Positions 2,766-43,765 of a stretch of DNA of 64,000 nt are shown here, in pieces (the stretch's first letter is position 1; each line of letters opens with the position of its first letter). A program made the position numbers and the translations under genes. The notes under the pieces are model-generated. The model ran no database searches. It saw only the letters and a program-made list of their open reading frames with translations, and was not told the origin of the DNA. Origin of the DNA: Candidatus Woesebacteria bacterium GW2011_GWB1_33_38 (lineage in GTDB: Bacteria > Patescibacteriota > Microgenomatia > UBA8517); contig LBPF01000001.1 in NCBI GenBank assembly GCA_000990005.1, positions 90,315 to 154,314 on the forward strand, given 5' to 3'.

Positions 2766-2782
2766 TAAAACAATTAATCTGT

Positions 2783-2805
2783 GACGAGTTACGGGTTACG
2801 AGTTA
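2783..2805. repeat. 5' arm of an inverted repeat flanking the four-helix-bundle gene (gacgagttacgggttacgagtta)
   Basis: Bases 2793-2805 (gggttacgagtta) are the perfect reverse complement of 3200-3212 (taactcgtaaccc). Heptamer-like internal reiteration (gagttac/gggttac/gagtta). Confidence 0.7.
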
Positions 2806-2813
2806 AACAAAAT

Positions 2814-10320: not shown

Positions 10321-10329
10321 TATCTTCAT

Positions 10330-24837: not shown

Positions 24838-25533
24838 ATGGAAGATCCAGTGGGAGAAAAATCACTAGAAGTAATGTCTGAAGCCAAATGGTATAACTTA
24901 CTTATTTACAACCGTTTTGTGAAACCAAATTTAGGTAAAAAAGTTCTTGAAATAGGATCTGGGATTGGTAATTTTACAGAAATACTCCTTAAAGATTCGA
25001 AGTTGTTATTAGCAACAGATATTAGAAAAAGTTATCTCTCCACCCTTAGAAAGATAAAAAACAAAAAGCTTAAAGTTGCATTTGCGGATATTGAAGATAA
25101 TATTTTTAAACCTAAATATACTGGTTTTGATACGATTATATGTTTAAATGTTTTAGAGCATATTAAGAACGATCAAAGGGCGCTTAATAATATGTACAAG
25201 AAATTAAATAAAAATGGGAAGTTGGTGATGTTGGTTCCAGCCCATCAACAGTTTTATTGTTTGTTAGACAAGAATCTAGGTCATTTTAGGAGATATACCA
25301 AAAATTTACTGCGAAATAAAATAAAAAAGGCAGGCTTTAAGATTGTTTCTGAAGATTATCTGAATCCTATTTCAGGTATTGGTTGGTTTATTAATGGAAA
25401 GATATTAAGAAAAGGGGTAATTGATACTAAATTAATTAAAATATTTAATCTTTTATTAAAACCTATCATTAAATTAGAAAAATATTTTAGACCATCGTTT
25501 GGATTATCGGTCGTTATTGTTGCTCAAAAATGA
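24838..25533 (+). CDS. class I SAM-dependent methyltransferase
   Basis: VLEIGSGIGNFT; FDTIICLNVLEHI. Confidence 0.75.
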   Translation: MEDPVGEKSLEVMSEAKWYNLLIYNRFVKPNLGKKVLEIGSGIGNFTEILLKDSKLLLATDIRKSYLSTLRKIKNKKLKVAFADIEDNIFKPKYTGFDTIICLNVLEHIKNDQRALNNMYKKLNKNGKLVMLVPAHQQFYCLLDKNLGHFRRYTKNLLRNKIKKAGFKIVSEDYLNPISGIGWFINGKILRKGVIDTKLIKIFNLLLKPIIKLEKYFRPSFGLSVVIVAQK

Positions 25534-26966
25534 AATCGAATAAAACCATTATATTAACAACAGTTTTCTTGATTTTTATATTTAATTTTTTCCTAAGAAT
25601 CTACTTTGCAAATCAAATAAAAGGTGTTTCTGGTGGGGATGCTTATAACAATTTATTTATTGCAAGACATATTGTCAATGGCAATAATCCCTTCTTGGAA
25701 GCAAGAAGATTGCCTTTTTACCCATTACTTTTGGTTCCAACACAATTTTTTGAGGTTGATCCTATCTTATATTCAAGAATAATTGCAGCTTTAGCTGGGT
25801 CACTATTGTCTGTAGTTATTTTTCTATTTGCGTTGAGTTTTAAATTAAATATTTTTCTATCAATAGTTGTAGCGATGCTAACAGGTATGTCACCGACATT
25901 ATTTTTTGTATCGGTAAGACCTCTTTCCAACAGCACATTTGCTTTTTTAATCGTCACCTCTGTTTACTTGTTTTATCAAAATTACAAAAAGAAGAAATTT
26001 AACAAAAATTATTCTTTATGGTTTATGTTGGGACTGGCTTCGATGACAAGACATGAAGGTTTTGTTATCGCCTTCATATTCTTTATATTTTTGCTACTAA
26101 AAGCAATTAAGAGAAAACAAATTATTAAATTAATTTATTCGTTAATACCATTTGGAATATTAGTATTACCTTTTTTTATTAATAATTATTTAAATTTTGG
26201 CAAACTTTTCTATTCAGATTATTTGGAATATCCAGAAGGTTTATGGATGCCAAAAGGTTGGGACGAATTTATCCGAAATTTTAATATGCTTTCAGAAATA
26301 CCAAAATATATTTGGTTTTCTGGAACTCAATTTTTGTCTTATGGGAAAATACTAAGCTTCATTTTGATCATTGGAGTGTTTGCATGGATAAATGATAAAA
26401 AGAAATTATCTATACCCTTAATATTTATTTTACTGTCTCAAGTTGTTATATCATTTTGGTATCAACCAACAATTAGATATTGGCTTCAAATAATACCCTT
26501 TGCATCCTTTTTAGTGGTTTATTTAGGTTTTTCGTTGTCAAAAAAATACAGTTTAAAAATATTTGTATATCCACTTTTTGTTTTAATACTTTTTTTCCAA
26601 TTCAAATCACTTTATATTTATATGAAAGGAACAGTAAATCAATTAAACCAAGGTACGCGACAAGAGTATCTGTTAAGGAAAGCACTTCTTGATGTTTCGC
26701 AGAATTTTGAAGGAAAAATTGGTCTACCTGCCGATTATCCACAAGCTCTTTATTTTTTGAAGAATAAAGGTGTTTACTATACAACCCGACCTCCCAAGAT
26801 AGATTCAATTGAGATTCAAGAAAAATGGATAAAAGATAATTCTATTAACTATCTGTTAATTCCTAAAGAACACGATTTTCTAGACATCGTAAGAATTAAA
26901 AAATTTCCAATAGTAAAAATATTTAAGGAAGATAATTCGGAAGTCGTAATGTATAAAGTTTTATGA
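25530..26966 (+). CDS. polytopic membrane protein, putative GT-C-like glycosyltransferase (module copy A)
   Basis: SGGDAYNNLFIARHIV...FLEARRLPFYPLLLVP...MTRHEGFVIAF. Paralogous to 29580-31007. Confidence 0.5.
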   Translation: MKSNKTIILTTVFLIFIFNFFLRIYFANQIKGVSGGDAYNNLFIARHIVNGNNPFLEARRLPFYPLLLVPTQFFEVDPILYSRIIAALAGSLLSVVIFLFALSFKLNIFLSIVVAMLTGMSPTLFFVSVRPLSNSTFAFLIVTSVYLFYQNYKKKKFNKNYSLWFMLGLASMTRHEGFVIAFIFFIFLLLKAIKRKQIIKLIYSLIPFGILVLPFFINNYLNFGKLFYSDYLEYPEGLWMPKGWDEFIRNFNMLSEIPKYIWFSGTQFLSYGKILSFILIIGVFAWINDKKKLSIPLIFILLSQVVISFWYQPTIRYWLQIIPFASFLVVYLGFSLSKKYSLKIFVYPLFVLILFFQFKSLYIYMKGTVNQLNQGTRQEYLLRKALLDVSQNFEGKIGLPADYPQALYFLKNKGVYYTTRPPKIDSIEIQEKWIKDNSINYLLIPKEHDFLDIVRIKKFPIVKIFKEDNSEVVMYKVL

Positions 26967-28822
26967 TTAATAAAATAATTGTTTTTATTACGTTTTTAGT
27001 CCTGCTCTTTTTCTTAAAAGAAAGTCTTTTGCTTATTGATCCATTTGAAAGACCAGGTGCTTTTTTGGAACATATGAATGAGATTCCATTATTAATATCA
27101 GTTTTGATCGGGATTGCTGGAGTTTTTGCAGTATTTAGTTATTTATTTATTAACAAATTAAACAAAAAATATTGGATTTATGCTTTATTAATTGTGCTGT
27201 TTTTATCTCTTTCAGCAAAGTTTCTTTACACACTGGTTTTACCAGTTACGAACGATGAGGGGGCTTATCTTTATGATTCTCTCTTGATTAGCCAAGGTTC
27301 ATCTCCTTTTCATTTTTCCTTTGCTAGATCTCCAGCCTTTGTTTATCCGTTAGCACTATTTATTAAAACTTTTGGATCTAGCTTATTTATTGGGAGAAGT
27401 TTTTCAATAGTTGTATCTATTGGTATAAGTTTTATTTTATTCTTAATAGGTAAATTTATAAAAAATGAAAGGTTGGGATTTTTAAGTTCTTCTTTTTTTC
27501 TTGTATTTTCTCCGATGGTTTATGACACTATTTATGTTCATACACAGACTATAACTATATTTTATGTACTTGTTTCTTTTTATTTCTTACTTAGATCAAT
27601 TAAAGATGGTAAAAATTTAAATATACTGATTTCTTACTTTTTTATTTCATTAGGTATTTTGACTAGAGAAATGGTCATATTCTATTTACCCCTATGGGCT
27701 GTGCTCACTTTTTTCCCGATTAGTAAAAAGAATTTTGCTCATAAACTAATTAAAACGGTTTTAGGATGCTCAATGTTTACTCTCACTTATTTGGGTTTAT
27801 GGTCTTTAATTGGTCTAAGTATTGGATTCGAAAAAGTTTTTTATAATCTTATGGCGCTTGCCACTGCTAGGCAAGGTCACACTAGCTATATTGTATCTAT
27901 CGTGTCTAAACTTGAGCTTGTTAGATTTAATTTGGTTTACGCCTTTGGAATATTATCTCTTTTTACTACTTCTGCATTCAGTTTTATTTTAGGTAAATTA
28001 ATAAAACATAAAAATATTCTGTTGGGTTTTGTTTCTATTGTACTGATCCTTTTCGTTAAAAGTGTTCCCAATACGCTTGTATCAATAGGTATGGATAATT
28101 ATTATCTTTTTTTTGTTGTGATGGCTGTTTTGTTTAGTTGCTCTTTGATCTTATACTTATCCAAGAATTCCATAAAAGACACGCAAAAAAGCACTTCATT
28201 GATATATTTAATCGGTTTGTTCGCTGTCCCATTCTCTTTTTACCTTTTCTATTATCCGAATTTTCAAACAGAGTATTGGATAGAATTTCTAGTACCGCTT
28301 ATCATGGTGATTTCATTCATGTTTAATCATCAAATTATAAAATTTGATTACAAACGTAATATTTGGTTGCTTTTAACACTATTGATTGTGGTCTCTGTAA
28401 ACACATTCTTATCTTTTTGGGTTACTCTTAAACCACAAAGAGGAACATACTCAATAACAAATTTGATAGAGATCAGAGACCATCTTATAAAAAATTACCC
28501 CAAGAGAGAGATCTTTACTGGTGCGTCGATTATACCTTTTGTTTCTGGAAATAGCCTAGCTTTAAACATTACTCATCCTGCTATATATTCTTACCAAGAT
28601 ATTGATAGTAGAATAATTGATAAACTTTTTCCCTCAGAGAAAGAGATTGTTGATTATTTGGCTGTTAATAAAATACAAATTGTAGTAATTGAAAAATTTA
28701 CAACAGACTCTTATTTTAGTAAAAGTGATATGATAAAAAATTATATATATGCAAATTATTCAGAAGAAAAGATAATTGGTTCTGAAAACCCCTTAATATT
28801 ATTAACCAAGAACGAAAAATGA
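26963..28822 (+). CDS. GT-C superfamily glycosyltransferase (module copy B)
   Basis: First-loop VTNDEGAYLYDSLLISQG. About 13 TM helices. Paralogous to 30982-32727. Confidence 0.6.
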   Translation: MINKIIVFITFLVLLFFLKESLLLIDPFERPGAFLEHMNEIPLLISVLIGIAGVFAVFSYLFINKLNKKYWIYALLIVLFLSLSAKFLYTLVLPVTNDEGAYLYDSLLISQGSSPFHFSFARSPAFVYPLALFIKTFGSSLFIGRSFSIVVSIGISFILFLIGKFIKNERLGFLSSSFFLVFSPMVYDTIYVHTQTITIFYVLVSFYFLLRSIKDGKNLNILISYFFISLGILTREMVIFYLPLWAVLTFFPISKKNFAHKLIKTVLGCSMFTLTYLGLWSLIGLSIGFEKVFYNLMALATARQGHTSYIVSIVSKLELVRFNLVYAFGILSLFTTSAFSFILGKLIKHKNILLGFVSIVLILFVKSVPNTLVSIGMDNYYLFFVVMAVLFSCSLILYLSKNSIKDTQKSTSLIYLIGLFAVPFSFYLFYYPNFQTEYWIEFLVPLIMVISFMFNHQIIKFDYKRNIWLLLTLLIVVSVNTFLSFWVTLKPQRGTYSITNLIEIRDHLIKNYPKREIFTGASIIPFVSGNSLALNITHPAIYSYQDIDSRIIDKLFPSEKEIVDYLAVNKIQIVVIEKFTTDSYFSKSDMIKNYIYANYSEEKIIGSENPLILLTKNEK

Positions 28823-29580
28823 AAATATCTAAATTAAAATTACAGGAAGTAAAACTACACAAAAAACTAGCAAAATCCTACTATTGGGTGCGTGAAAAAA
28901 ATTCTCATTATAAGTATTTTAATAATTTGTGGATAGAACAAATACAAACCATGCTTCCAAAAAAGAAGTATCAAAATACATTGGATTTAGGTTGTGGCAC
29001 CGTTGAATTTTATGAATTAATTAAGGATAAACTCAATTCAAATTATTTAGGGGTTGATTTGTCTCCAGACATGCTTAATATTGGTAGGAAAAAATACAAA
29101 AACATACGTTTGCTAGAAGCCGACGCGGAAAATTTACAAATAAAAGATAGTACCTTTGATTTAATAATCGGACGAGGTATTATCCATCACTTACCTGAAC
29201 CTGTAAAAGGGTGTGAAGAAGCTTATCGAGTGCTCAAAAAGGGCGGATATTTTATTGTTTCCGAACCTTATAGTAATATTTTTCTCAAATTGATTCGTAA
29301 GATTTATTATAGATTATCAAATCATTTTTCAGATACTCATAAATCGTTTTCTGGAGATGAACTTTCAAATTTATTAATTAAATCTGGATTCGTAATTAAA
29401 GAGATCGGTTTTTGGGGAGTTCTATCTTTTCCATTTGCTTTCCCCGACATCTTGCCTACTTATAAGTTTGTTCCACTTCCCATATTTAAGCTCTTAGTCC
29501 AGCTAGATAAGATAATTGTCAAAATACCATTTATCAAAAAAATGGCTTGGCACATAATAATTCTTTGTAAAAAAAGGTAA
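28819..29580 (+). CDS. class I SAM-dependent methyltransferase
   Basis: LDLGCGTVEF; FDLIIGRGIIHHL. Confidence 0.8.
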   Translation: MKISKLKLQEVKLHKKLAKSYYWVREKNSHYKYFNNLWIEQIQTMLPKKKYQNTLDLGCGTVEFYELIKDKLNSNYLGVDLSPDMLNIGRKKYKNIRLLEADAENLQIKDSTFDLIIGRGIIHHLPEPVKGCEEAYRVLKKGGYFIVSEPYSNIFLKLIRKIYYRLSNHFSDTHKSFSGDELSNLLIKSGFVIKEIGFWGVLSFPFAFPDILPTYKFVPLPIFKLLVQLDKIIVKIPFIKKMAWHIIILCKKR

Positions 29581-31007
29581 TGAAAAAATACATATGGCTT
29601 ATTGTGATTATTTTTATAGCAATTTTGTTAAGGTTGTTATTAATTACCAGTATCCAAGGAACAAGTGGGGGAGATGCTTTTGAGTTTTTGTTGATTGCAA
29701 AAAGAATCATTTCATTTGAGAATCCGTTTTTGGATGTTAAAAGACTTCCATTTTTCCCGATAACATTAATCCCTTCATATTTTTTAAATATTGATGGAAT
29801 AATGTGGGGGAGAATTGTAAATACAATATTTGCAGGTCTATCCCTGTATTATATGTATTTAATCGGGGATAAGTTTAAGATTTCAAAATTTTTGAATTAT
29901 TTATCTTTAATTCTTTTTACATTTTCTTCTGTTTATCTCTTTTATTCACTTAGACCTCTTTCTTCTTCTCTTTTTACACTTCTGTTTCTATCGTCAATTT
30001 ACTATACATTAGAGAGCAAAAAAACATCTATTTTATTTGCGTTTACGTCTCTTGGTCTTTTGTCTATGACAAGGCATGAAGGATTTCTGATTTCGCTAAT
30101 AATATTTTTATATTATTTTTGGTCAACTAAAAGAAAAGATTTAATTGTCAAATTTTCAAAACCTTGCTTAATCTATTTAATTTTAGTTCTTCCATTTTTT
30201 TTAAACAACTATATTTATCATAAAAACTTTCTATATTTAGGTTACTTAGACGATGGAGGAGGGTTATATATACCCAAAAATTATGAAAACCTTGCCTCTA
30301 ATTTGAAAATAATGTCATTCGCAATTTATTCCACCTGGGGGAATATAAGAATTTTTAAAACTAACATTAATTTACTCAACATTTTATTTAGCTCAACTGT
30401 TATTTTTATTGCCTTAGGATTAATTGATTATCTTAAAAAAATAAACAAACAAAAAATGCTTGCTTTGATTCTTTTAATCTCACAATTAATAATTGCTTTA
30501 TGGTTTCAACCTAGTGGTAGATATATTCAACATCTAACACCATTTTTGTCGACCCTTTTGTTATTAGGTATAAGTAAATTTTCAAAAGTTATTCTCCCGA
30601 TACTTATAACAGGTGCTTTAGTTACAACTTCGTTGTATACAGTCAAGCTTAAAATAGATGAATTTAATTTTGATACAAAAGGCCAAAAAGAATTTACTGA
30701 TTCTATTAAATATTTAAAAGTCAGATCAGGTATAGTGGCCATTGAGCCTGATAGGGATTATACTCAAAGTTACATTGCAAAATATTATTTGGGAGACAGT
30801 CGAATCAAATTTATAGGGGGTGATTTTCTTGGTCGTGGTTTGATCGACAGTAATCCTAGATCCCAAATTAATTGGCTTCAAAGTGAAAATGTCAAATATA
30901 TTGTTGACTCACCTAAATTTGATGATTTTACGTTTTTAGGCGACAATAGATATCAAGGTCAGTTTATAATAAAAACAAATTATGTATATGAAGTTATTAA
31001 AAAATAA
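29580..31007 (+). CDS. polytopic membrane protein, putative GT-C-like (module copy A')
   Basis: SGGDAFEFLLIAKRII...FLDVKRLPFFPITLIP...MTRHEGFLISL. Confidence 0.5.
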   Translation: MKKYIWLIVIIFIAILLRLLLITSIQGTSGGDAFEFLLIAKRIISFENPFLDVKRLPFFPITLIPSYFLNIDGIMWGRIVNTIFAGLSLYYMYLIGDKFKISKFLNYLSLILFTFSSVYLFYSLRPLSSSLFTLLFLSSIYYTLESKKTSILFAFTSLGLLSMTRHEGFLISLIIFLYYFWSTKRKDLIVKFSKPCLIYLILVLPFFLNNYIYHKNFLYLGYLDDGGGLYIPKNYENLASNLKIMSFAIYSTWGNIRIFKTNINLLNILFSSTVIFIALGLIDYLKKINKQKMLALILLISQLIIALWFQPSGRYIQHLTPFLSTLLLLGISKFSKVILPILITGALVTTSLYTVKLKIDEFNFDTKGQKEFTDSIKYLKVRSGIVAIEPDRDYTQSYIAKYYLGDSRIKFIGGDFLGRGLIDSNPRSQINWLQSENVKYIVDSPKFDDFTFLGDNRYQGQFIIKTNYVYEVIKK

Positions 31008-32727
31008 AAAAGTTTTACTTGTTGGTTTTATTGTCTTATTGGGTTTGTTTATACATTTGTATTACGCAAACAATTTACCATTAACAAACGATGAAAGCTC
31101 GTATCTTTATGATACCTTAAACATCAGGAATGGATTAATACCTCTTAAAGATTTTCTAACCAAGTCATTACCATTTATTTATTTATTAACTTTATCTCAA
31201 AGTATTTTTGGCAACTCAATTTTCGTGGGTAGATTGTTAATGATTGTTATTTCCCTTTTTACATCACTATTACTTTATTTTTTTGCTAGGGATATGTTGG
31301 GTAAGAAAATTGCAATTATTTCAGGTCTAATTTATTGGGCGTTTCCATTAATTGCTGCATATACTACACAGATACATACAGAACCGCTTCAAGTGTTGTG
31401 TGTTATCCTGTCATATTTATTTTTATTTAGATTTAGAGTTTCAAAAAAATTACATCATTTACTCTTCTCCGCGATAGCCATGACAATTGCCTTTTTTGTT
31501 AGACAATCAAGCATAGTACTAATACTACTACCGGCACTTTTTGAAATGTTTAGTAAAATTTTATTTAAAAGTAAATTTTTAAAATTACCTATCTATTTTT
31601 TTGCAATTACCTCTGTATTAATATCACTAGTCACAATATTTGCTTACAATTATTTTGGAGGTGGCAGAACACTTGAACTTGTTGGTGGTGGGGCGGCTAA
31701 TTTGGCAATTCAAGAAAAAGGATCATTGGGTATAAAAGAAATTATAACCTATCCTTTTAAATTTGGTCTCGAGGCGATTGTTGAAGCAAATAATCTATTT
31801 AGAGATGGTTTAATTTTATTGTCTTTTGCACTGCTTACATTATTCTATTATTTCTTAGCCAAAAGAAATAAAATTGAAGATAAATTTAAGACTTATGGTT
31901 TTGCCTCTATATTTTTGATATTTATTTTTTCAATGTACCAATTTCGTTATCATCTCTTTTCCGGATTGTGGAAAGTAGACATGATTCCACAAGTAAATTT
32001 ACTATTCTTGACTATTGTTTTAACGTTGTTAACTTTTTCTCACGTGACGCATCGGAATTCACTTAGCCCTAAATATTTTAAGATTTTTAATTCCCAATTT
32101 TATAAATTTTTAATTTTATGGATAATTATACTTTTGGGAATATATTTATTGTGGATTAAATTCCGATCACCATATTTGATTGAGTTCTTTCCTCCTCTCC
32201 TTATTCTTTTTTCAATTGGCATAACATCTTTTATTGAAGACATAAATTTAATTACAAATAAAGTTTATAAAAAAAGCATCAGATTAATATTAATTTTATT
32301 CACAATAGTTTCATTTACAACTTCTTTTTATATGAATAAGAATATATACTTCACAGGTTTGTTTTTACCAGCAGAAGTTGAAGAAATAACAAATTATATT
32401 AAGTCTGAATCGCCCAGTAAAGATACTATCCTGACAGCTTTAGCAATACTCCCATATTTATCGGACGATGAGGTAATTTATAACATTTCTCATCCAGCTT
32501 GGTATGGATATACTAATATCAGGCGAGATGTATTTTTATTATATTTTCCTCCTGTTGAAAAATTATTAGAGTTACTTAAAAATAGAAGGGTTAAATTCAT
32601 TATTAGAGAACCATTTACAGATGCATCTTATTTTAGATATAAAGATATACGAGAACAGATGGAGGTAAATTATTCACTTGTAAAAACTGTTGGAAGGGCC
32701 ACTATATATAAGATTAAAGATGAATAA
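30982..32727 (+). CDS. GT-C superfamily glycosyltransferase (module copy B')
   Basis: LTNDESSYLYDTLNIRNG first-loop motif. Multi-TM. Confidence 0.6.
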   Translation: MYMKLLKNKKVLLVGFIVLLGLFIHLYYANNLPLTNDESSYLYDTLNIRNGLIPLKDFLTKSLPFIYLLTLSQSIFGNSIFVGRLLMIVISLFTSLLLYFFARDMLGKKIAIISGLIYWAFPLIAAYTTQIHTEPLQVLCVILSYLFLFRFRVSKKLHHLLFSAIAMTIAFFVRQSSIVLILLPALFEMFSKILFKSKFLKLPIYFFAITSVLISLVTIFAYNYFGGGRTLELVGGGAANLAIQEKGSLGIKEIITYPFKFGLEAIVEANNLFRDGLILLSFALLTLFYYFLAKRNKIEDKFKTYGFASIFLIFIFSMYQFRYHLFSGLWKVDMIPQVNLLFLTIVLTLLTFSHVTHRNSLSPKYFKIFNSQFYKFLILWIIILLGIYLLWIKFRSPYLIEFFPPLLILFSIGITSFIEDINLITNKVYKKSIRLILILFTIVSFTTSFYMNKNIYFTGLFLPAEVEEITNYIKSESPSKDTILTALAILPYLSDDEVIYNISHPAWYGYTNIRRDVFLLYFPPVEKLLELLKNRRVKFIIREPFTDASYFRYKDIREQMEVNYSLVKTVGRATIYKIKDE

Positions 32728-33631
32728 TATGTTTTGGAATAACAAAAAAGTTTTTTTAACTGGTGGGAATGGTTTTGTTGGTAGTAAATTATCCCAAGCC
32801 CTTAAAAAGAAAAAAGCTGAAGTATTTTTATATGATGGCGATATTAGAAATTATCAGGATTTATTTGATCAGTTTGTAAAGTCTAAAACTACAATTATTT
32901 ACCATCTTGCGGCCCAGTCACTAATTGAAGTGGGAAAAATAAGTCCGATTGAGACTTTTGAGATAAATATAAAAGGGACTTGGAATATTCTTGAAGTAGC
33001 GAGAAAGGCGGGAGTTGAAAAAATTGTTATAGCTTCAACCACTCATGTTTACGGTGATAATCCACACCTACCATACAAAGAGGAATATTACCCACAACCT
33101 TCAAGACCTTATGAAACATCAAAAGCTTCGGCTGATTTAGTTTCACAATGTTACGCAGATACTTATAATTTACCTGTTGAAATATCTAGAATGGTAAATT
33201 TATACGGACCAGGTGATCTAAATACATCAAGATTGTTTCCAAAAATAATTAGTCAATTACTTAACAATATAAACCCTGTAATTTTTGATATAGGCGCTGT
33301 ACGAGATTTTTTATATATTGATGACGCAATTGAAGGATATTTAAGGCTAGGGCAGGTAAAACTTCCAAATGTAAAAAGAGCCCGTGTTATCAATTTTGGT
33401 TCGGGTAAGCCAATTGATATAACTACACTTGTTGACAAAATAATTAAATTATATGGAAACAAAAAGTTACATTTGTTAACCAAAGCTGTTCCTGACGAAA
33501 GAGAAAAAGAAATTAAAAAACAATATGTATCTATTGCTAAAGCAAAGAAACTTCTTGATTGGACTCCAAAGGTCAGTTTAGATCAGGGAATAAAAAAAAC
33601 TATAGCTTTTTATGTGAAACAAAAAAGTTAA
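32720..33631 (+). CDS. NAD-dependent epimerase/dehydratase family protein
   Basis: VFLTGGNGFVGSKL; YETSK. The ATG at 32720/32729 is preferred over the long ORF start at 32690. Confidence 0.8.
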   Translation: MNNMFWNNKKVFLTGGNGFVGSKLSQALKKKKAEVFLYDGDIRNYQDLFDQFVKSKTTIIYHLAAQSLIEVGKISPIETFEINIKGTWNILEVARKAGVEKIVIASTTHVYGDNPHLPYKEEYYPQPSRPYETSKASADLVSQCYADTYNLPVEISRMVNLYGPGDLNTSRLFPKIISQLLNNINPVIFDIGAVRDFLYIDDAIEGYLRLGQVKLPNVKRARVINFGSGKPIDITTLVDKIIKLYGNKKLHLLTKAVPDEREKEIKKQYVSIAKAKKLLDWTPKVSLDQGIKKTIAFYVKQKS

Positions 33632-35994
33632 AACTTTTTATACACATCAAAAGTTGGTGTGATATATGTTTCTGGTTTCTCGTGTCCTAAAACACTAGGC
33701 CTTTTCCCAAAGGTTGCAATTAACTTATAATTTCTTCCAAGAATACTTGGAATAATTTTACCGTACGGATTTTCTGCTATTTCTCCCAAGAAATTAAACG
33801 ATCCCCATCTGCCCTTATGATTGATGGTTCTATATATGACAATATAATCGGGAAATATTTTACCTTGTTCAACAGATTTCATCTGATCATAGTTATAAAC
33901 AAGTTTCTTGTCACGGTTTAAAAATATTCTATCTCTACTACTTGGTAAAAGTATAAAAACGGATTCATTAGATTTTGAAGTTTTGTTCAAGAACGTGGCC
34001 ACCTCAGTTCTTGGATCAGAAATCGCGTATGGATAAAAATAAGCTAAAGAGAATAAAAACATATACCCCACAACCAACATTATTACTGTGTTTGTTAAAA
34101 TTTTAATTTTTGGTATATTTTTATCTATATAGTAAAAAACAGCACCTGTGAATATAGCTACGAATGGTGCAAAGGGAACAATGTAGCGATCTTCATTAAC
34201 ATCACCATATTGATTGAGAGACAAAAAGAAAAATACATAAGTAATGAGAAGTGCAAGAATCAGATTTGAATCCTGTTTGTTTTTAATTCTGTGAATTATA
34301 ACAAACAACAAAATTACAATTCCAATCAAATGCAAATATGTTGCCGGTTCGGAAAATGCGAGTGTAAAAAAAGGGTAATCTTTACTTTGATATCTACTCC
34401 AAATGTATTTAATGCTCGTAGGACTTATGTCATATCTTTTAATGGAAGTTCGTTGGAAAGCATTACGTGGATCGGCCAAGGCTACTTTGTAGTTCTTTAA
34501 GCAGCAAAATGGATATGGGTAAAATGTTTTAAAAATAAAAAAAGCAAAAACTATTAGTGCTGAAAAATAAAAAATTGCTATTCCTAATTTTTTTCTGTTG
34601 TTATACAGTGTAACTAGACATAAGAATCCAAATGCAGGTAGAGCTACCAAAAAGGTGGCTTTTGTAGACATAGCTAATCCAAGGATAATCCCCGTAATTA
34701 CAAACAATATTAATTTGCTTGATTTTGTCAACAAATAAGCTAAATATAATATTAAGGGAATAAATAAAGTTACTACAGCCTCGCCTTTAGCTAACTGTGA
34801 CATAAACCAATGTCCAGGGAAAAGTGTATAGATAGACATTACAAAAAGAGCTGTTTTCTCGTTAAACATTTTATTGGCGATTATGAAGACAATTAAAATT
34901 GAAGATATTCCAAAAAAAGCAGTTAATACTCTCATAATCCCATAAACTTTATATGCGCTTATGAATTCCTTTGGAGATATCTTAAGTCTATCTAATAAAT
35001 TTGAGCTGTTGTCGTAAAAAACTTTATATAAATATACTGGTTTGGCAATTTCATATTCTCCAAAGTTTTTAAAGAAGTCTTTATCTAATACATAGTTATA
35101 CATATGTCCTTCATCATGATATGGTGAGCCATGTTTTATCCCATTAGTGTTTAGCCCCCAAAAGATTCCAGCAGTTCTCAAAAAAATTCCAAGAAGCAAA
35201 ATACAAATAAAAATAAATTTGTTTCTAATTGGTATTTTTGAAATTAATTTAGTCAACCAATCAAATTTTATGGGTTGTAAATTGTATTTTAAAATTTCCC
35301 AAATATTTTTCGCTCCGTCTCGCCAGCCAATTTTTTTACCCTCTTCATATGATCTGCCTGTGTAAGAGATTCCAACTTCATAAATTTTTACATTTTTTAA
35401 TTTGGCAAGTTTTGCCGTTAACTCAGCTTCAATTCCAAATCTTTGAGATTCAAGTTTTGGTGCAATTTGATCAATTATGTGTTTTTTAAAAACTTTATAG
35501 CCAGTCTCCATGTCAGTAAAATTTAGATTGGTTAAGATATTTGAGAGTGTGGTTAACATTTTATTGGCTACATAGTGCCAATAATAAAGAACCCTATGGG
35601 GTTTATTGGTTACAAATCTAGATCCGTAGACAACATCTGCTTGATGTTCAAAAAAAGGTTGGAGCATGGTAGGGTAATCATCAGGGCTATACTCCAAATC
35701 GGCATCCTGAATCATTACCAGGTCGCCAGTTGTCTTTAAAAACCCTTTTTTACATGTTGCTCCTTTACCAAGATTTAATCTATTTTTAAGAAGAGTAATT
35801 TTTAAAAGCTTTGATTTGTACTTTTTAACAAAACGATTAACCTCGAGAATAGTATTATCTCTTGATCCATCGTCAACAACTACGATTTCTTTTTTTAACT
35901 TAAGCGTATCTGATTTTGCAACTTTTTGAAGCGTTTGAAAGATGAACTTCCCTTCGTTATAAACTGGTATTACAATAGAGATAGATTTGATCAT
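33628..35994 (-). CDS. fusion: N-terminal GT2 polyprenyl-phosphate sugar synthase (DPM1-like) + C-terminal about 550-aa GT-C-like polytopic domain
   Basis: N-terminus ISIVIPVYNEGKFI...VVVDDGSRDNT...DADLEYSPDDY, followed by more than 10 TM helices with a loop motif YHDEGHMYNY. The ATG at 35994 is preferred over the upstream TTG at 36000. Confidence 0.7.
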   Translation of the reverse strand: MIKSISIVIPVYNEGKFIFQTLQKVAKSDTLKLKKEIVVVDDGSRDNTILEVNRFVKKYKSKLLKITLLKNRLNLGKGATCKKGFLKTTGDLVMIQDADLEYSPDDYPTMLQPFFEHQADVVYGSRFVTNKPHRVLYYWHYVANKMLTTLSNILTNLNFTDMETGYKVFKKHIIDQIAPKLESQRFGIEAELTAKLAKLKNVKIYEVGISYTGRSYEEGKKIGWRDGAKNIWEILKYNLQPIKFDWLTKLISKIPIRNKFIFICILLLGIFLRTAGIFWGLNTNGIKHGSPYHDEGHMYNYVLDKDFFKNFGEYEIAKPVYLYKVFYDNSSNLLDRLKISPKEFISAYKVYGIMRVLTAFFGISSILIVFIIANKMFNEKTALFVMSIYTLFPGHWFMSQLAKGEAVVTLFIPLILYLAYLLTKSSKLILFVITGIILGLAMSTKATFLVALPAFGFLCLVTLYNNRKKLGIAIFYFSALIVFAFFIFKTFYPYPFCCLKNYKVALADPRNAFQRTSIKRYDISPTSIKYIWSRYQSKDYPFFTLAFSEPATYLHLIGIVILLFVIIHRIKNKQDSNLILALLITYVFFFLSLNQYGDVNEDRYIVPFAPFVAIFTGAVFYYIDKNIPKIKILTNTVIMLVVGYMFLFSLAYFYPYAISDPRTEVATFLNKTSKSNESVFILLPSSRDRIFLNRDKKLVYNYDQMKSVEQGKIFPDYIVIYRTINHKGRWGSFNFLGEIAENPYGKIIPSILGRNYKLIATFGKRPSVLGHEKPETYITPTFDVYKKF

Positions 35995-37561
35995 GTTCAA
36001 AAAGATTTTGTTACTGGGAATTATAGGACTTCTTTCTCTATTTTTCTATTGGAAATTTTCTATGCCTAAGTATTTAACTTTTTCCGATGGGGCTAAGGTT
36101 GCCGATATTGCAAAAAATATTGCACAAGGTAACGGCTATGGGTCCACTTTTTCATCATTTGGAGCAGATAAGGAAATCCTAAATCATTTAAGTTTAAATG
36201 TTTTCCCTGCATGGGGTAGGCACCCTCTAATGCCTTTTTCTGTGGCTATCTTTTACAAGTTGTTCGGAGTAGGTGATTTGGGATTGATTTTAACTTCTAC
36301 TTTTTTTTATTTGTTATCGATAATAGGAATCTACTTGTTGGCCAAAAATATTTTTAATGAGAATATTGGTTTTATTTCTGCACTTTCCTTTATTTTTATA
36401 CCTATCTTTTGGGAATATGCTCTAACTGGAGCCTCTGAGTCTTTGTTTATTTTAGAGATAGTTTTAACTTTTCTATTTTTAACGTTAAAAAATAAACGAC
36501 TTCACATTCTTGGTTTAGTTGTTGCAGGTCTATCATACTTTACTAGACCTCAAGGGTTTATTTTAATTGTTGGAGCATTAACATATTATTTTTTGATATC
36601 TAGTAAGAGTATAAAGTTAGTTTTTTTTAAGTTAATTCTAGCTGTGGTTATCGGAATAGCTATTGACTTAACTTTGTTTACAAAACTAACAGGTAAAACA
36701 TTTTTCTATTCAATATTGTCAAAAGGTGTTGATGTTTCAGTTCTTTATACCCCAAGTTTGTCTGGTACGACTGGTTTAAGGACACAGGTTGATGCAAAAG
36801 ACCTGTTAATTTCAAACAGTTTAGAAGTAGGCAAAAAAGTATTTTACAATTTCTACAATTTATATAAGTTAATGCCCGATATCATGCCTTCATCTATTTT
36901 TGTACTTTTTATGTTATCTCTGTTTATTAAGGAGGAAGAAAAAAAGATAAATTATATAAAATATACTTTCCTTTTTATGTTTTTGTTAACTATCTTGTCA
37001 ACCTCAGTTTCAATTCCATTTTTTAGATATTTACATCCATTTGTTCCCCTACTTCTTATCTTTGCAATCTCTACGCTTTCAAAAATTGTAAAAATTAAAT
37101 TTGTATACCTCCTTGTATTTATTTATCTGATTGCAAATAGCCTAGGTATCTTATTTTTGGATTCAAGGTTTATATCAAATACTAAAAACACTAGTAAACC
37201 TCCAGTTTATGTTTTAATGTCACAGATCTTAAAAGACAATACATCAAGTAACGATGTTGTGGTTACAAACCTTGATACCTGGGGAAGTTGGTATGGTGAA
37301 AGAAAAACTGTCTGGTTTCCTGTAGATCCAAAAGTAATTGCAGAAAGTGATTTTGACGCAATTTATTTGACAAGTTATAAAATGGATGACGAAAATTATT
37401 ATATGGGTGATGATTGGAGAAAGATATTTAACAATTCCGAAAATCAAACAGTATTATCTCAATATAAATTAGAAAAAGAATTTATGATTAATGCTGAAGA
37501 TACATATGAAAACGAACCAGCTAACGCAGTTCTGTTGGTAAAAAAAGTTTCTTCAAACTAA
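35993..37561 (+). CDS. GT-C superfamily glycosyltransferase (ArnT-like)
   Basis: Multi-TM; the loop FSDGAKVADIAKNIAQGNGYG resembles the ArnT first-loop region. The ATG at 35993 overlaps the divergent gene's ATG in a CATG palindrome. Confidence 0.5.
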   Translation: MFKKILLLGIIGLLSLFFYWKFSMPKYLTFSDGAKVADIAKNIAQGNGYGSTFSSFGADKEILNHLSLNVFPAWGRHPLMPFSVAIFYKLFGVGDLGLILTSTFFYLLSIIGIYLLAKNIFNENIGFISALSFIFIPIFWEYALTGASESLFILEIVLTFLFLTLKNKRLHILGLVVAGLSYFTRPQGFILIVGALTYYFLISSKSIKLVFFKLILAVVIGIAIDLTLFTKLTGKTFFYSILSKGVDVSVLYTPSLSGTTGLRTQVDAKDLLISNSLEVGKKVFYNFYNLYKLMPDIMPSSIFVLFMLSLFIKEEEKKINYIKYTFLFMFLLTILSTSVSIPFFRYLHPFVPLLLIFAISTLSKIVKIKFVYLLVFIYLIANSLGILFLDSRFISNTKNTSKPPVYVLMSQILKDNTSSNDVVVTNLDTWGSWYGERKTVWFPVDPKVIAESDFDAIYLTSYKMDDENYYMGDDWRKIFNNSENQTVLSQYKLEKEFMINAEDTYENEPANAVLLVKKVSSN

Positions 37562-38501
37562 ATTTCCAAACGGCTATCAGCATAATTTTAAAAAGTAACA
37601 AGCCATGGTGAAATCTTTTTATATTTGTCATGCCATATATTCTTTCTTTGTATCTAATCGGGATTTCGATAACCTTTAAATTATTTTGAATAGCACCAAA
37701 AATTAATTCAAAATCACCAAATGGGTCGTCTTTGAAATATTTGAAAGTATTATAATCTTTTTTAAATAAAGCCTTGGTTCCACACAAAGTATCTTTAAAT
37801 ATTTGACCAAAAACTTTTGTAAAAAATAAGCCGAATATTTTATTTGCAATTTTATTTAACATTTGCATCGCGTCCTTTTCCATTGGATAAACAAGTCTGC
37901 TACCATTTGCAAACTCTGCCTCCCCTGAGACAAGTATGTTGTAGAACTTTATAATATCTTTGGGGTCAACTGTTCTGTCTGCATCATATATTATTAAGAT
38001 ATCAGCTGTTGATTTCCTGAACCCAAGTCTAACAGCATTGGCTTTTCCTAAATCTGGTTGCTTTAATGCAATAACTTTTCTGGCTTTAATCTTATTTGTT
38101 TTTATTTCAGCTTGAATTTTAAGCCAAGTGTCATCTTTTGACCCCCCTTCAACAAATATGATTTCTTGAGATTTACCAAAATAGGGTATTGATTTTATTA
38201 TTCCAGGGATATTTCTGGCCTCATTTCTTGCAGGAATTACAATTGAAACCGATAGTTTATTTAAACCAACAGTCTTAATTCTAGCTATAATCCAATCTTT
38301 TTTGATAGCTATAAATTGATAACCAGAAAGGGTCAAAAGGTTTTTAATGTCATTTTTATCTAGCCAATTACTTTCTTTAAAAAGATTGTTTTGATATTCT
38401 ATAAAAAATCTTTTATTTAGATTTTTCTTAGTATTTAATTTCTCAAGGTAGGATTGAATGTCTGTAATTTTGTCTAGGTTTTTAATAATTATATTTTTCA
38501 T
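37521..38501 (-). CDS. GT2 family glycosyltransferase (DPM1-like)
   Basis: VSIVIPARNEARNIP...IIFVEGGSKDDT...IIYDADRTVDP. Confidence 0.75.
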   Translation of the reverse strand: MKNIIIKNLDKITDIQSYLEKLNTKKNLNKRFFIEYQNNLFKESNWLDKNDIKNLLTLSGYQFIAIKKDWIIARIKTVGLNKLSVSIVIPARNEARNIPGIIKSIPYFGKSQEIIFVEGGSKDDTWLKIQAEIKTNKIKARKVIALKQPDLGKANAVRLGFRKSTADILIIYDADRTVDPKDIIKFYNILVSGEAEFANGSRLVYPMEKDAMQMLNKIANKIFGLFFTKVFGQIFKDTLCGTKALFKKDYNTFKYFKDDPFGDFELIFGAIQNNLKVIEIPIRYKERIYGMTNIKRFHHGLLLFKIMLIAVWKFSLKKLFLPTELR

Positions 38502-38529: not shown

Positions 38530-39810
38530 GTGAAGAAATATTTTCTAAAAGCTAAATCGTTAGTTTTATCTTCAACCGCAAAAGATACATATATCTTATT
38601 TTCTGGAAATATATTCTCGGCTTTCCTGGGTTTTGTTTTTACTCTAGTAGTCGCTCGTAGCTTGTCAGTTTCAGATTTTGGAATATTCTCTGCTGCTGTT
38701 AATTTGGTTGTTATCTTAAGTTCAATTACTGATTTAGGAATATCAACAGGAGCAGTTAATTTTGTAGCAGAGAATGAAGCGAAGGGTGATAAAGATTTAG
38801 TAAATAAATACATAAAAGCCTCTACCGTTTTACGATTTGAAGCTACACTAATAGCATCTTTATTGGTAATCTTTTTTGCAAAATATGTAGCTAACACATT
38901 TTTAATTACTGACAAGGTAAATGTTGCTATTTTGACATCATTAGTTTCCCTATCTCTTGCTTTACCTATGATATTTCCTTTTATTCTTCAAGCAAAGAAA
39001 AAATTTGTTTCCTCAATAATTTCTGATAATTCATTGTATTTAACAAGGCTGGTCTTTACTTTTGGATTTATGTTTTTGGCTAAAGTCACAATTGAAAATT
39101 CATTGCTAGCATTTATTATAGGTGGAGTTGTGGGAACTATTGTCAGTGTGTTTTTAATAAAGCCAGATTTCTTAAAATCTAAACCTGAAAAAGAAGTTTA
39201 TACTAAAATCATTAAATTTTCAGGCTGGATTGGTGTTAATAGAATTATCTCTTCAATTTCAGGTAGGTTAGATATCCAAATGCTTGCAGTTCTAGCTGGT
39301 GCTACTGCAACTGGACTTTATTCAATCCCATCAAGACTTGCAGGTTTTGTTGTAGTGTTAACATCCAGTCTCTCGGGTGTGTTTGCCTCAAGGCTTGCAA
39401 GTTTTGGAAATAAAGAAGAAGAAAAAAAATACATTGTAAAAGCAACACTTTCACTTCTGCCAATAGTAGCCGGGCTTATACTTTGGATAATTGTTGCTAA
39501 ACCTTTTATCTTAGTCCTTTTTGGAGAGAATTATTTTGATTCAATACCTGTATTTAAGGCTTTAGTTGCCGCAATGATTCCGTTTATTTTTACTGCACCT
39601 TCAGTTTCGGCCATTATATATGGCATGAAGAAAAACGTTTACATAGGTGCTTTTAGTTTTTTTCAATTAGCTGCTATATTTTTACTTAATCTTGTCTTTA
39701 TTCCTAAATATGGTGCCATCGGCCCGACAATTACTTTTGGTATAACTAACACAATTTTAGCAATTTATACTTGGATTATTGTAATCAACAATTATTGGAT
39801 TAAAAAATGA
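38530..39810 (+). CDS. oligosaccharide flippase (Wzx-type, MOP superfamily)
   Basis: 12-TM protein with a Wzx-like N-terminus (LVLSSTAKDTYILFSGNIFSAFLGFVFTLVVARSLSVSDFGIFSAAVNL). Appears to start with GTG. Confidence 0.7.
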   Translation: MKKYFLKAKSLVLSSTAKDTYILFSGNIFSAFLGFVFTLVVARSLSVSDFGIFSAAVNLVVILSSITDLGISTGAVNFVAENEAKGDKDLVNKYIKASTVLRFEATLIASLLVIFFAKYVANTFLITDKVNVAILTSLVSLSLALPMIFPFILQAKKKFVSSIISDNSLYLTRLVFTFGFMFLAKVTIENSLLAFIIGGVVGTIVSVFLIKPDFLKSKPEKEVYTKIIKFSGWIGVNRIISSISGRLDIQMLAVLAGATATGLYSIPSRLAGFVVVLTSSLSGVFASRLASFGNKEEEKKYIVKATLSLLPIVAGLILWIIVAKPFILVLFGENYFDSIPVFKALVAAMIPFIFTAPSVSAIIYGMKKNVYIGAFSFFQLAAIFLLNLVFIPKYGAIGPTITFGITNTILAIYTWIIVINNYWIKK

Positions 39811-40646
39811 CAATATATGCACATACACTTTTCAAAAATGAAGAACGCTTTCTTTGGTATTCTGTTAATTCTGTTATAAATTATGTTGATAAACTATTTC
39901 TTTGGGATACAGGTTCAACTGATAGATCTTGGGACATCGCCTCTCTTTTAAAGAAAAAATATAAAGATAAAATAGATTTAAGACAATATGGTGAAGTAAC
40001 AACTGAAACTTTTCCTATAGCCAGGCAAGAAATGTTAAATGAAACAGATGCTGATTGGTTCATTGTATTAGATGCAGACGAGATATATTGGCAGGATTCG
40101 ATACAAAAAGTAGTTAAATGTATAACAAGTAATACAAGTATTACAGGTTTTGAAACGATTATTGTTCCTACAATTAATTTAGTGGGGGACATTTATCATT
40201 ATCAGGAAAAAGAAGCTGGTAAATATCAATTTGGTGAACTTAAAGGCCATTATAATTTGAGGGCAATTAAAAGAAACATTAATGGTTTACATTCTAAAGG
40301 TGTACATGGTGTATGGGGATGGGCAGATCAAGAAGGAAAACAGATTCAAGAAAGAAATACTTATAAATTTGTTGATGCACCCTATTTACATGCAACCCAT
40401 TTACCTAGGGGGGAAGGTAGAGTAGACGATAAAAAAGTTCCCAAAAGATCTAAAAAATTAAAATATGAAATAGGCGAAAGATTTCCGTTAGATTTTTACT
40501 ATCCAGAAGTTTTTTTTGAAGATAAACCTGATTTTATAATTTCTCCGTGGATGCCTATGACTATTGACTATAAGCTGATGGCATTTGTACAAACGCCATT
40601 TAGAAAAATAAAAAGGAGGTTTATCAAAAATGGAGTGGGGTATTAA
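39807..40646 (+). CDS. putative GT-A fold glycosyltransferase (GT2-like)
   Basis: TLFKNEERFL...WDTGSTDRS...FIVLDADE (DxD motif). Confidence 0.5.
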   Translation: MTIYAHTLFKNEERFLWYSVNSVINYVDKLFLWDTGSTDRSWDIASLLKKKYKDKIDLRQYGEVTTETFPIARQEMLNETDADWFIVLDADEIYWQDSIQKVVKCITSNTSITGFETIIVPTINLVGDIYHYQEKEAGKYQFGELKGHYNLRAIKRNINGLHSKGVHGVWGWADQEGKQIQERNTYKFVDAPYLHATHLPRGEGRVDDKKVPKRSKKLKYEIGERFPLDFYYPEVFFEDKPDFIISPWMPMTIDYKLMAFVQTPFRKIKRRFIKNGVGY

Positions 40647-41847
40647 TTTTACTGCCTGGCCTGAAATGATAGCCTGGCCGTATCTAATATTACAGGGATG
40701 GCTTCCGTATCGAGATATTGCTATAGCTCATAATCCACTACTACTGTTAGATCTAGTAGTCTTTTTTAAACTTTTTGGAGTTGGAATACTTCAACTAAAG
40801 ATTTATACCTGGGTTTTAATTTCCATTAATATTTATATAACCTATTTTGTTGCAAATAAATTTTGGAGTAAGAATGTCGCTTTTGCGTCTGCCGCTATCT
40901 ACTTACTTTTAACTGTTGTATATGAAGGCAATGGTCTCTGGTTTGATCTTGCTTTAGTTCCATTTGTTTTATTACTTTATTTGTTTATTCGCCAGAAAAA
41001 ATATTTATTTGCTGGAATTATTTTTGCATTAGGATTTTTAACGAAACAGACATTTATTTATTTTTTGATACCTGTTCTTTTATCTAACATAAATATCAAA
41101 AAGTTTTTGCTTGGAGTAACTTCTATCTTTGGAATTTTTACTTTATATCTTTTTACTAATAACTTAATACTTTATTATTACGATTGGGCTATTAAATTTG
41201 GAATTTTTTATCTCCCCAATGCTGTAGGTCAGGTACAATTACCGACTCTTAGGCAATTTTTATTTTCCGTGTTTCCATTTTTAATTTTTACTTTAAATTT
41301 TGATTTTTTACTTTTAACTTTTGCATTTGTAGGAGTTTTGGGAGTATACCCTAGGTGGGAACTGTTTCATTTTCAACCGGCTCTGCCATTTATTGCAATT
41401 GCTGTTGCTATTTTTTTATTTTCTAAAAGTAGAAATATAGTTAAGATCGTTTTTCTGATTTTTATATTTTGCTTTGCCTTTGTTGGTTTAAAAAGACAAA
41501 TTGGAAATAACACACGTTTTTATGAACCTGAAGTAATAAAAATAACTGAAGAGATAATAAAGTTAAGAACTGAAGAAATATATATTATTAATTACTGGGA
41601 CAATATCTATGCATTTACAAATACAATTCCTTCAACTAAACCTTTAATTCCATATATACCTTGGTATTTATCATATGATAACAGTAAGGATTTAATTTTA
41701 AACGACTTAAAATCAGAAATGTCAGAAGCGATAATGGTTAATGAAAAAGATAAACTTGAATTTTTGGAATTAAAAGATTTTATTGATATGTTTTATTCAT
41801 GTGAGAATAAATTTAAACAAGTTGAATTGTGTATAAAAAACAAATGA
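40630..41847 (+). CDS. polytopic membrane protein (possible GT-C/polymerase-like); function unknown
   Basis: About 10 TM helices and no recognisable soluble catalytic domain. Confidence 0.4.
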   Translation: MEWGINFTAWPEMIAWPYLILQGWLPYRDIAIAHNPLLLLDLVVFFKLFGVGILQLKIYTWVLISINIYITYFVANKFWSKNVAFASAAIYLLLTVVYEGNGLWFDLALVPFVLLLYLFIRQKKYLFAGIIFALGFLTKQTFIYFLIPVLLSNINIKKFLLGVTSIFGIFTLYLFTNNLILYYYDWAIKFGIFYLPNAVGQVQLPTLRQFLFSVFPFLIFTLNFDFLLLTFAFVGVLGVYPRWELFHFQPALPFIAIAVAIFLFSKSRNIVKIVFLIFIFCFAFVGLKRQIGNNTRFYEPEVIKITEEIIKLRTEEIYIINYWDNIYAFTNTIPSTKPLIPYIPWYLSYDNSKDLILNDLKSEMSEAIMVNEKDKLEFLELKDFIDMFYSCENKFKQVELCIKNK

Positions 41848-42926: not shown

Positions 42927-43765
42927 TTAGCGTAATTATCCCCACATACAATGAAGAAGATGTAATTAGTGATTGTTTATTATCACTATCTAAACAGTCA
43001 TTTAAAGACTTTGAAGTAATTGTTGTTGATGACGGAAGTGTTGATAATTCAAAAATAAAAATTCAAAACTCAAAAATACAATTTAAAAATCTAAAATTAA
43101 TCCTTTTAGGACAAGACCATAAAGGAGCGGGAAACGCTAGGAATTTGGGGGCAAAACATGCAAATGGAGATATTTTGGTTTTTGTTGATGCTGACATGAC
43201 TTTTGACAAAAACTTTATAAAAATGCTTGCTAAGCCAATAATTACGGGCAAATTAAAAGGTGTGTTTTCCAAAGAAGAGCACGTTAGTAACTGGAGCAAT
43301 GTTTGGTCAAGGTGCTGGAATATAAACGAAGGTTGGGAGGATAAAAAAAGACACCCTAAAAAATATCCAGATTACCAACCTGTTTTTAGAGCAATATTAA
43401 AGTCAGAATTTAATAAAGTCGGTGGTTTTACTCCTGGAGGATATGATGATGATTGGAGTTTATCTAAAAAATTAGGCTACGAAGCATTTTTTTCGCCGAA
43501 GGCGGTGTTTTTTCATAAAAATCCTGAAGGCTTAAAAGAAATATTTAATCATGCCAAATGGGTGGGGAAAAGGCAGTATAAGTTAGGACTATTGGGTTAC
43601 TTGATAGGTTTAATTAGGAGTTCTTTCCCGGTCTCACTATTTATTGGCTTCGTTAAATCTGTATTAAGTTTTAATTTTTATTTTTTAATTTTCAAATTGG
43701 TGTATGACTTTGGAATTTTTGTGGGAATAATTAATTTTATGTTTACCAAAAAAGGTGCAAAATGA
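42923..43765 (+). CDS. GT2 family glycosyltransferase
   Basis: ISVIIPTYNEEDVISDCLLSL...VIVVDDGSVDNS...VFVDADM. Confidence 0.8.
   Translation: MISVIIPTYNEEDVISDCLLSLSKQSFKDFEVIVVDDGSVDNSKIKIQNSKIQFKNLKLILLGQDHKGAGNARNLGAKHANGDILVFVDADMTFDKNFIKMLAKPIITGKLKGVFSKEEHVSNWSNVWSRCWNINEGWEDKKRHPKKYPDYQPVFRAILKSEFNKVGGFTPGGYDDDWSLSKKLGYEAFFSPKAVFFHKNPEGLKEIFNHAKWVGKRQYKLGLLGYLIGLIRSSFPVSLFIGFVKSVLSFNFYFLIFKLVYDFGIFVGIINFMFTKKGAK

Follow-up and report, generated by a model that had tools for sequence, protein, structure and literature searches.

A lipid-linked-sugar synthase-like GT2 domain and a predicted GT-C glycosyltransferase on a single polypeptide in a glycan-assembly island of Candidatus Woesebacteria

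Multi-component glycosylation systems combine a GT-A glycosyltransferase that makes a polyprenyl-phosphate-linked sugar, a flippase and a GT-C glycosyltransferase, with the GT-A and GT-C genes typically arranged as adjacent pairs (PMC8035078, PMC10821137). A 64,000-nucleotide stretch of contig LBPF01000001.1 from Candidatus Woesebacteria bacterium GW2011_GWB1_33_38 (positions 90,315 to 154,314; hereafter the window, whose numbering is used throughout) carries one open reading frame (ORF), 33628..36000 on the minus strand, that joins a GT2 module of the GT-A fold to a GT-C membrane module. As in the GtrB-GtrA-GtrC, CsbB-GtcA-YfhO, GacI/J-GacK-GacL and ArnC-ArnE/F-ArnT systems, the predicted arrangement pairs an inside GT-A with an outside GT-C; those systems use separate GT-A and GT-C proteins, whereas here both reside on one polypeptide. 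A search for GtrA-like small polytopic ORFs found no GtrA-type flippase gene in the 64-kb window, where the flippase-like gene is of the Wzx type. We regard the fusion as a single-chain variant of the known three-component systems, one that is apparently undescribed: a full-text literature search with incomplete coverage of subscription journals returned no published natural GT-A/GT-C fusion, which is weak evidence for absence.

GT-As that lack transmembrane (TM) helices, such as GacI and WpsA, need a small membrane partner, which for GacI is GacJ (PMC10821137, PMC8035078), and Ppm1 is fused in M. tuberculosis and split into adjacent, interacting genes in M. smegmatis (PMC3485146). M. tuberculosis Ppm1 (Rv2051c, domains D1 and D2) resembles the present fusion in that a TM-less DPM-like synthase is joined to a polytopic domain, and its fused and adjacent-gene forms parallel the fusion described here and a split pair in Candidatus Roizmanbacteria. 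The Ppm1 membrane domain, however, is an N-terminal six-TM anchor and not a GT-C (PMC3485146), whereas that of the fusion is C-terminal, with 11 predicted TM helices, a predicted GT-C fold and retained catalytic motifs. The likeness to Ppm1 drawn in a preliminary description of this DNA is reasonable as regards the fused and split lineages; it is an analogy only, with the domain order reversed and a GT-C as the partner.

The ORF is complete, encoding 790 residues from a TTG start; its orthologues begin at the ATG of codon 3, the probable start at position 35994, which gives a protein of 788 residues. Five full-length relatives of 788-823 residues (83, 66, 54, 54 and 45% identity) were recovered from a search space of 5.8 billion proteins, and all five contain both GT2 and PMT_2 domains. 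The fusion orthologues stem from independent metagenomes, with P0001 present on 16 contigs, and the six fusion sequences can be aligned end to end, including the linker. One gene call, the 523-residue P0003, is 100% identical and lacks the GT2 part, hinting at a split gene and at an artefact in which a sequencing error or a chimeric contig had merged two neighbouring genes; that call is truncated, its start lying 60 nucleotides from a contig end. An assembly or annotation artefact is ruled out, and we give it a negligible probability, because the five orthologues, from different samples and at 45-83% identity, are all fused with an alignable linker and their gene order is kept.

The GT2 module covers residues 1-240 (35281..36000, minus strand) and is predicted to be a cytoplasmic polyprenyl-phosphate sugar synthase of GT-A fold. 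It matches Pfam Glycos_transf_2 (PF00535) at residues 8-178 (E 6e-29). Its best NCBIfam matches are AglJ (8.5e-24), ArnC (4e-20), PgfS (6e-18) and PpgS (3e-15), followed by less specific GT2s, and its best PDB matches are ArnC (9hwj, 2e-15) and the P. furiosus DPM synthase (5mlz, 5e-15, residues 6-238). The motif D99-A100-D101 (35698..35706, minus strand), lying within QDADLEY and corresponding to the metal and nucleotide-sugar motif of the domain, is invariant in the six fusion orthologues and lines up with DADLQ of ArnC and DPM synthase. With P. furiosus DPM synthase, ArnC and GtrB the module shares the GT-A fold, a DXD within DADL(Q/E) and alignment over the whole catalytic domain. Those three enzymes have their own C-terminal TM helices, whereas no TM helix is found within residues 1-250 of the fusion, and the fused GT-C domain is the membrane anchor on which the module relies. 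By homology, the domain is best described as a predicted GT-A catalytic domain closest to the polyprenyl-phosphate glycosyltransferases (DPM1/ArnC/AglJ type) and not to other GT2s, and it probably loads a sugar onto a lipid carrier. The DPM1-like character proposed earlier for the N-terminal domain is borne out by these matches, all of them to polyprenyl-phosphate glycosyltransferases, and the motifs named with it are all in place: IVIPVYNE at residues 9-16, DDGSRDNT at 43-50, DADLEY at 99-104 and, in the membrane module, YHDEGHMYNY at 294-303.

The GT-C membrane module spans residues 261-660 (34021..35220, minus strand), as delimited by an AlphaFold model and Foldseek, and is followed by a C-terminal, predicted extracytoplasmic alpha/beta domain at residues 661-790 (33631..34020, minus strand), delimited by model secondary structure and profile matches. 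The Pfam PMT/PMT_2 match region lies at residues 350-489 (34534..34953, minus strand): PMT (PF02366) scores 35.9 bits at 350-489 against a gathering threshold of 22.7, and PMT_2 (PF13231) scores 35.3 bits at 356-489 against 26.1. The model of the C-terminal domain, built from a 25-sequence alignment, has a predicted local distance difference test score (pLDDT) of 87.3 and a predicted template modelling score (pTM) of 0.90, and comprises 11 TM helices and then the alpha/beta domain, so that the outer soluble domain of the fusion is C-terminal in the model. In a Foldseek comparison with the PDB, the best 36 matches are all GT-C enzymes (ALG12, ALG9, STT3, AglB, Pmt4, ArnT, PglB, AftA and Emb), with E-values of 8e-9 for ALG12 and 4e-5 for ArnT, TM-scores of 0.4-0.53 and 11-16% identity. 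The first match that is not a GT-C appears at rank 37 (probability 0.35), with transporters from there on. In the model, the domain is of GT-C fold. The GT-C-like domain, the more than 10 TM helices and the YHDEGH loop postulated in the preliminary description accordingly hold up in the domain scan and the modelled structure: the PMT and PMT_2 thresholds are passed, no permease or Lnt-like anchor appears among the top fold matches, the helices number 11 in the model, and the loop corresponds to the predicted first extracytoplasmic loop with its conserved Asp-Glu pair.

The PMT/PMT_2 enzymes (protein O-mannosyltransferases, GT39; ArnT, GT83) and ALG9/ALG12 (GT22) have in common with the fusion the GT-C fold, a first-loop Asp-Glu, outer-face basic residues and an outer soluble domain. 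The low identity and modest TM-scores set the C-terminal domain apart from the solved GT-Cs, and, unlike in PMTs, no MIR domain is reported (Pfam scan, E <= 0.01), so the domain falls outside the GT39 PMTs, strictly defined. The segment HGSPYHDEGH (residues 290-299; 35104..35133, minus strand) forms the predicted first extracytoplasmic loop, in which D296-E297 is the predicted catalytic acidic pair. This pair is invariant in the fusion orthologues, and D296 reaches at least 90% conservation across the 25-sequence alignment.

A word-indexed search with the C-terminal domain alone retrieved only the fused orthologues and a few distant PMT_2 proteins, whereas a profile searched exhaustively against 1.84 billion representatives matched 271 at E <= 1e-30 and 23,875 at the looser limit of E <= 1e-3. 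The majority are free proteins of 550-600 residues covered over the whole domain, including the soluble tail, and in most of the top 150 representatives the match spans positions ~16-552; the alpha/beta tail (661-790) is, by these profile alignments, conserved across stand-alone members of the GT-C family. Fusion appears rare within this family, because only P0173 among the top 149 representatives carries a GT2 module. The H-x-D-E motif is present in 114 of the 149 representatives and marks a largely metagenomic GT-C subfamily without a characterised member. At the 103 occupied positions, the residue aligned with D296 is Asp in 84 (82%) and that aligned with E297 is Glu in 83 (81%). The best-conserved positions across the 149 representatives are R357 (97%), G441, P612, K447 (91%), R605 (89%), Y606, D/E407 and S401. 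A composite full-length alignment was not used, as MAFFT placed the first ~90 residues of the stand-alone GT-Cs onto the GT2 domain. The C-terminal domain looks catalytically competent and not degenerate, because all of the best-conserved family residues are kept in the fusion protein; at the level of sequence, neither domain has lost its catalytic-type motifs, which are conserved.

The inter-domain junction (residues 226-283; 35152..35325, minus strand) consists of Lys/Arg-rich juxtamembrane helices and TM1. In the models, its helices cover residues 226-240, 247-254 and 261-280, and seven Lys or Arg residues fall within the 35 residues preceding TM1. The GT2 domain must be cytoplasmic, because the nucleotide sugars that it requires are found in the cytoplasm and it lacks a signal sequence. 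If the GT2 domain is placed inside, so that TM1 leads outward, the 11 TM helices are predicted to put each of the 13 GT-C residues conserved in the family in an outside loop or at an outer helix end, and the C-terminal domain would likewise fall outside. The two active sites would then face opposite sides of the membrane, so that the lipid-linked sugar must cross the bilayer and direct channelling is unsupported. Substrate channelling from synthase to transferase, the role first proposed for the fusion, has to be given up on this topology, in which the GT2 domain is cytoplasmic and the conserved GT-C residues map to the outer face.

In the mechanism we propose, the TM-less GT2 domain on the cytoplasmic face would transfer sugar from a nucleotide sugar to polyprenyl phosphate, yielding polyprenyl-P-sugar, as its homology suggests, while the 11-TM GT-C domain would keep it at the membrane. 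A separate protein would shift the lipid-linked sugar to the outer leaflet, the syntenic Wzx-like gene being the only candidate seen. At the outer face, the GT-C domain, through its Asp296-Glu297 loop together with Arg357, Lys447 and Arg605, would transfer a sugar from a polyprenyl-P-sugar donor to an extracytoplasmic acceptor. The fusion would most likely serve membrane anchoring or activation of the synthase, a fixed 1:1 stoichiometry and co-localisation, and not direct channelling. We consider this account, with an inside synthase and an outside GT-C on one chain, a separate flippase and a fusion that provides anchoring, stoichiometry and co-localisation, moderately probable on the evidence of the sequences.

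The candidate flippase is encoded by a Wzx-type (Polysacc_synt) membrane protein gene (38530..39810, plus strand), two genes from the fusion and syntenic with it in all orthologous loci; it is the only flippase candidate near the fusion gene. Its conserved presence argues against a self-contained system, in which the fusion itself would move polyprenyl-P-sugar via its GT-C module or the domain junction with no separate flippase. Such a system would fit the missing GtrA-type gene and the placement of both active sites on one membrane scaffold, yet it draws no structural support from the poor full-length model, and we know of no GT-C enzyme shown to flip its own donor; we rate it as highly improbable. 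If true, it would point to a translocation route for monosaccharide-lipid donors, a step whose catalyst, to our knowledge, is still unidentified for many such systems.

For the account with a separate flippase, the partnership of the two domains can be judged from the GT2 module elsewhere. The module is very common: no fewer than 599 loci were counted in reference genomes, covering nearly all bacterial phyla, and 78 of 79 examined loci encode it as a free protein of ~240 residues. The reference-genome scan, based on GT2-domain patterns only, returned no full-length fusion orthologue, and its best GT2 matches come from Candidatus Roizmanbacteria. There, in the unfused pair of locus L006, a free 250-residue GT2 module (56% identical; 12493..13245 of that locus, plus strand) lies 64 nucleotides from a divergent 573-residue PMT_2 GT-C (10708..12429, minus strand) whose first loop reads HLHPDE. 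On its side away from the GT2 module, this GT-C is bordered by another GT2 gene (9881..10696). A polytopic ORF (at least 380 residues and at least eight TM helices) occurs within 1.5 kb of 29 of the 78 free GT2 modules, on the same strand and at -3 to 64 nucleotides from the module in ~14 of these 29; of ten neighbours tested, four score above the PMT_2 threshold, from Roizmanbacteria, Peregrinibacteria, Planctomycetota and Chryseobacterium. These neighbouring genes are supportive of the fused parts being partners, as far as gene arrangement can indicate.

Fusions of the module are diverse. Among its 120 best-scoring database relatives, a polytopic domain follows it in 55 and precedes it in 11, soluble partners, mostly methyltransferases, are attached in 53, and a few are fused to GtrA-type flippase or formyltransferase domains. 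In other phyla the module is fused to various polytopic domains, and proteins with GT2 and PMT_2 domains occur in both domain orders in many lineages and several phyla under generic database names only. The same fusion, for which a search had been suggested at the outset, is therefore found in five orthologues and is not singular as a domain pairing. Judged by domain content, partners such as GtrA and formyltransferase, the latter recalling ArnA/ArnC, are consistent with a lipid-phosphate sugar synthase. Relatives with these and other fusions (P0007, P0020, P0023, P0038 and others) carry SAM-methyltransferase domains, a methyltransferase plus GtrA, a formyltransferase domain or a UDP-GlcNAc 2-epimerase domain.

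Several observations weigh against the proposed inside-outside pairing. The full-length AlphaFold model, built from six sequences, is of low confidence (pLDDT 66, pTM 0.61), too poor to define a domain interface. Enrichment of polytopic neighbours beside free GT2 modules is about two-fold over the rest of these glycan loci, which is supportive and not decisive. All NCBIfam matches of the GT2 domain fall far under the equivalog cut-offs (best 84 bits against 325); as no family-specific cut-off is reached, neither a named enzyme nor a sugar can be assigned to the domain. About half of the closest relatives of the GT2 module are fused to soluble methyltransferases without a membrane part, which is not obviously expected of a lipid-phosphate glycosyltransferase. 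The cut-offs and the soluble GT2-methyltransferase fusions without a TM segment would equally suit a GT2 of ordinary type that acts at the cytoplasmic face to lengthen a lipid-linked oligosaccharide or some other acceptor; in that case the fusion would join successive, mechanistically unrelated steps. The window, moreover, already holds a canonical GtrB-type enzyme (15905..16855) with DADLQNDP and two TM helices. We find this interpretation distinctly unlikely: the best NCBIfam and PDB matches are exclusively polyprenyl-phosphate glycosyltransferases, ~5-6 orders of magnitude ahead of other GT2s (in the PDB, ~1e-15 for ArnC and DPM synthase against ~1e-9), the DPM synthase alignment extends across nearly the entire module, and GtrA and a formyltransferase domain occur as fusion partners among relatives.

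The composition of the window also tells against a dedicated pairing of the two fused domains. Twelve window ORFs score above the PMT or PMT_2 threshold and one more is a weak match, while DPM1-like GT2s number three: the fusion, the GtrB-type enzyme and 37521..38501. GT-Cs thus greatly outnumber donor synthases (~13 against at most three), so that any one lipid-linked donor is probably used by several GT-Cs and the two fused domains do not have to share a sugar. These numbers favour a looser coupling in which both domains are active with no mutual hand-over of sugar, the GT-C tethering and perhaps activating the synthase in the manner of Ppm1-D1/Ppm2 and GacJ, the synthase product feeding several GT-Cs of the locus and the fused GT-C possibly using a different donor. 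The Ppm1/Ppm2 precedent and the fusion of the GT2 module to several unrelated polytopic domains in either order, which suggests that any membrane partner suffices, point the same way. Set against it are the free GT2 modules that repeatedly adjoin PMT_2 GT-Cs across phyla and the GT-A/GT-C gene pairs csdAB, csdCD and csdEF, each of which acts on the same sugar (PMC8035078). On balance we judge this looser coupling a possible but rather unlikely explanation.

As a natural covalent link between a predicted lipid-linked-sugar synthase and a GT-C, the fusion is strong genomic evidence that the two work as a pair, and it allows the many free GT2-module/GT-C neighbour pairs in other phyla to be given partner annotations. 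Because both domains sit on one chain, the protein is also a convenient target for structural study of a TM-less synthase docking on a membrane glycosyltransferase and for testing by what route the donor crosses the membrane. The GT-C-rich locus in a low-GC (guanine plus cytosine), probably CPR-type genome is reminiscent of mycobacterial lipoglycan assembly, and such assembly has been little studied in these organisms.

The immediate neighbours of the fusion gene are conserved. An SDR-type NDP-sugar 4,6-dehydratase/epimerase-like gene (32690..33631, plus strand), which may supply the sugar, is convergent with the fusion gene, overlaps its stop codon and is syntenic in all orthologous loci. On the other side, a stand-alone PMT_2 GT-C gene (35987..37561, plus strand) is divergent, and its start codon overlaps that of the fusion gene. 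The gene order in four orthologue loci is Wzx-like, GT-C, fusion (opposite strand), SDR dehydratase/epimerase, GT-C, unknown polytopic protein, methyltransferase and GT-C, and the inverted orientation of the fusion relative to its neighbours is kept down to 54% identity. The unknown polytopic protein, of 475 residues in the window (29580..31007, plus strand), belongs to no Pfam family and keeps the same position in all orthologous loci, with a weak DUF2079 match in one orthologue; it may be another divergent GT-C-like enzyme.

At the divergent boundary, the 5' end of the fusion gene overlaps that of the GT-C gene (35987..36000), with both ATGs lying within the palindrome CATG at 35992-35995. 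The extended N-terminus of the divergent GT-C, which includes a TM1-like helix, is conserved in the locus of the 83% orthologue, and the divergent gap in other orthologous loci is 0-30 nucleotides. With a 5' overlap or a gap this short, each promoter must lie inside the other gene; a promoter scan gave 32 sites against 28.3 expected. The fusion gene had been singled out as the only large minus-strand gene of the locus, which is incorrect: that strand also encodes the 326-residue GT2 (37521..38501) and a 493-residue DDE transposase (46714..48195). The transposase gene lies inside the glycan locus; with it, the minus strand of the window has only three genes of considerable size.

The window, ~30% in GC content, is gene-dense with almost all genes on the plus strand, and as a whole is one glycan-assembly island. 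Its GT-C genes with PMT/PMT_2 matches lie at 43..1236, 1224..2765, 11294..12331 (weak), 13542..14960, 19567..21105, 25530..26966, 26963..28822, 30982..32727, 33628..36000 (the fusion), 35987..37561, 40630..41847, 43762..45057 and 52958..54367. Among them, the 478-residue ORF 25530..26966 (plus strand) passes the PMT threshold only. With ~13 GT-C genes in 64 kb the window is unusually GT-C-rich, which points to an elaborate surface glycan assembled for the most part outside the cell. It also encodes several GT4s, six methyltransferases, four SDR sugar-nucleotide enzymes, acetyltransferases, Wzx-like and Wzy-like proteins, ManC and an initiating phosphoglycosyltransferase.

Several further features of the window lie apart from the fusion. 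An MprF-like LPG_synthase_TM membrane protein is encoded within the glycan locus (21102..22037, plus strand), and the upstream part of the locus is interrupted by genes for a 23S rRNA intervening-sequence protein (2781..3176, plus strand) and a PIF1-like helicase (5333..6877, plus strand). One GT4 is seemingly split into an N-terminal Glyco_transf_4 half (56893..57414) and a C-terminal Glycos_transf_1 half (57407..57937), overlapping and both on the plus strand, which could reflect a frameshift, a pseudogene or a sequencing error. At 8779..10320 (plus strand), a VKOR (vitamin K epoxide reductase) membrane domain and a dihydroorotate dehydrogenase domain share a single ORF, which would link a quinone-reducing membrane module to pyrimidine synthesis.

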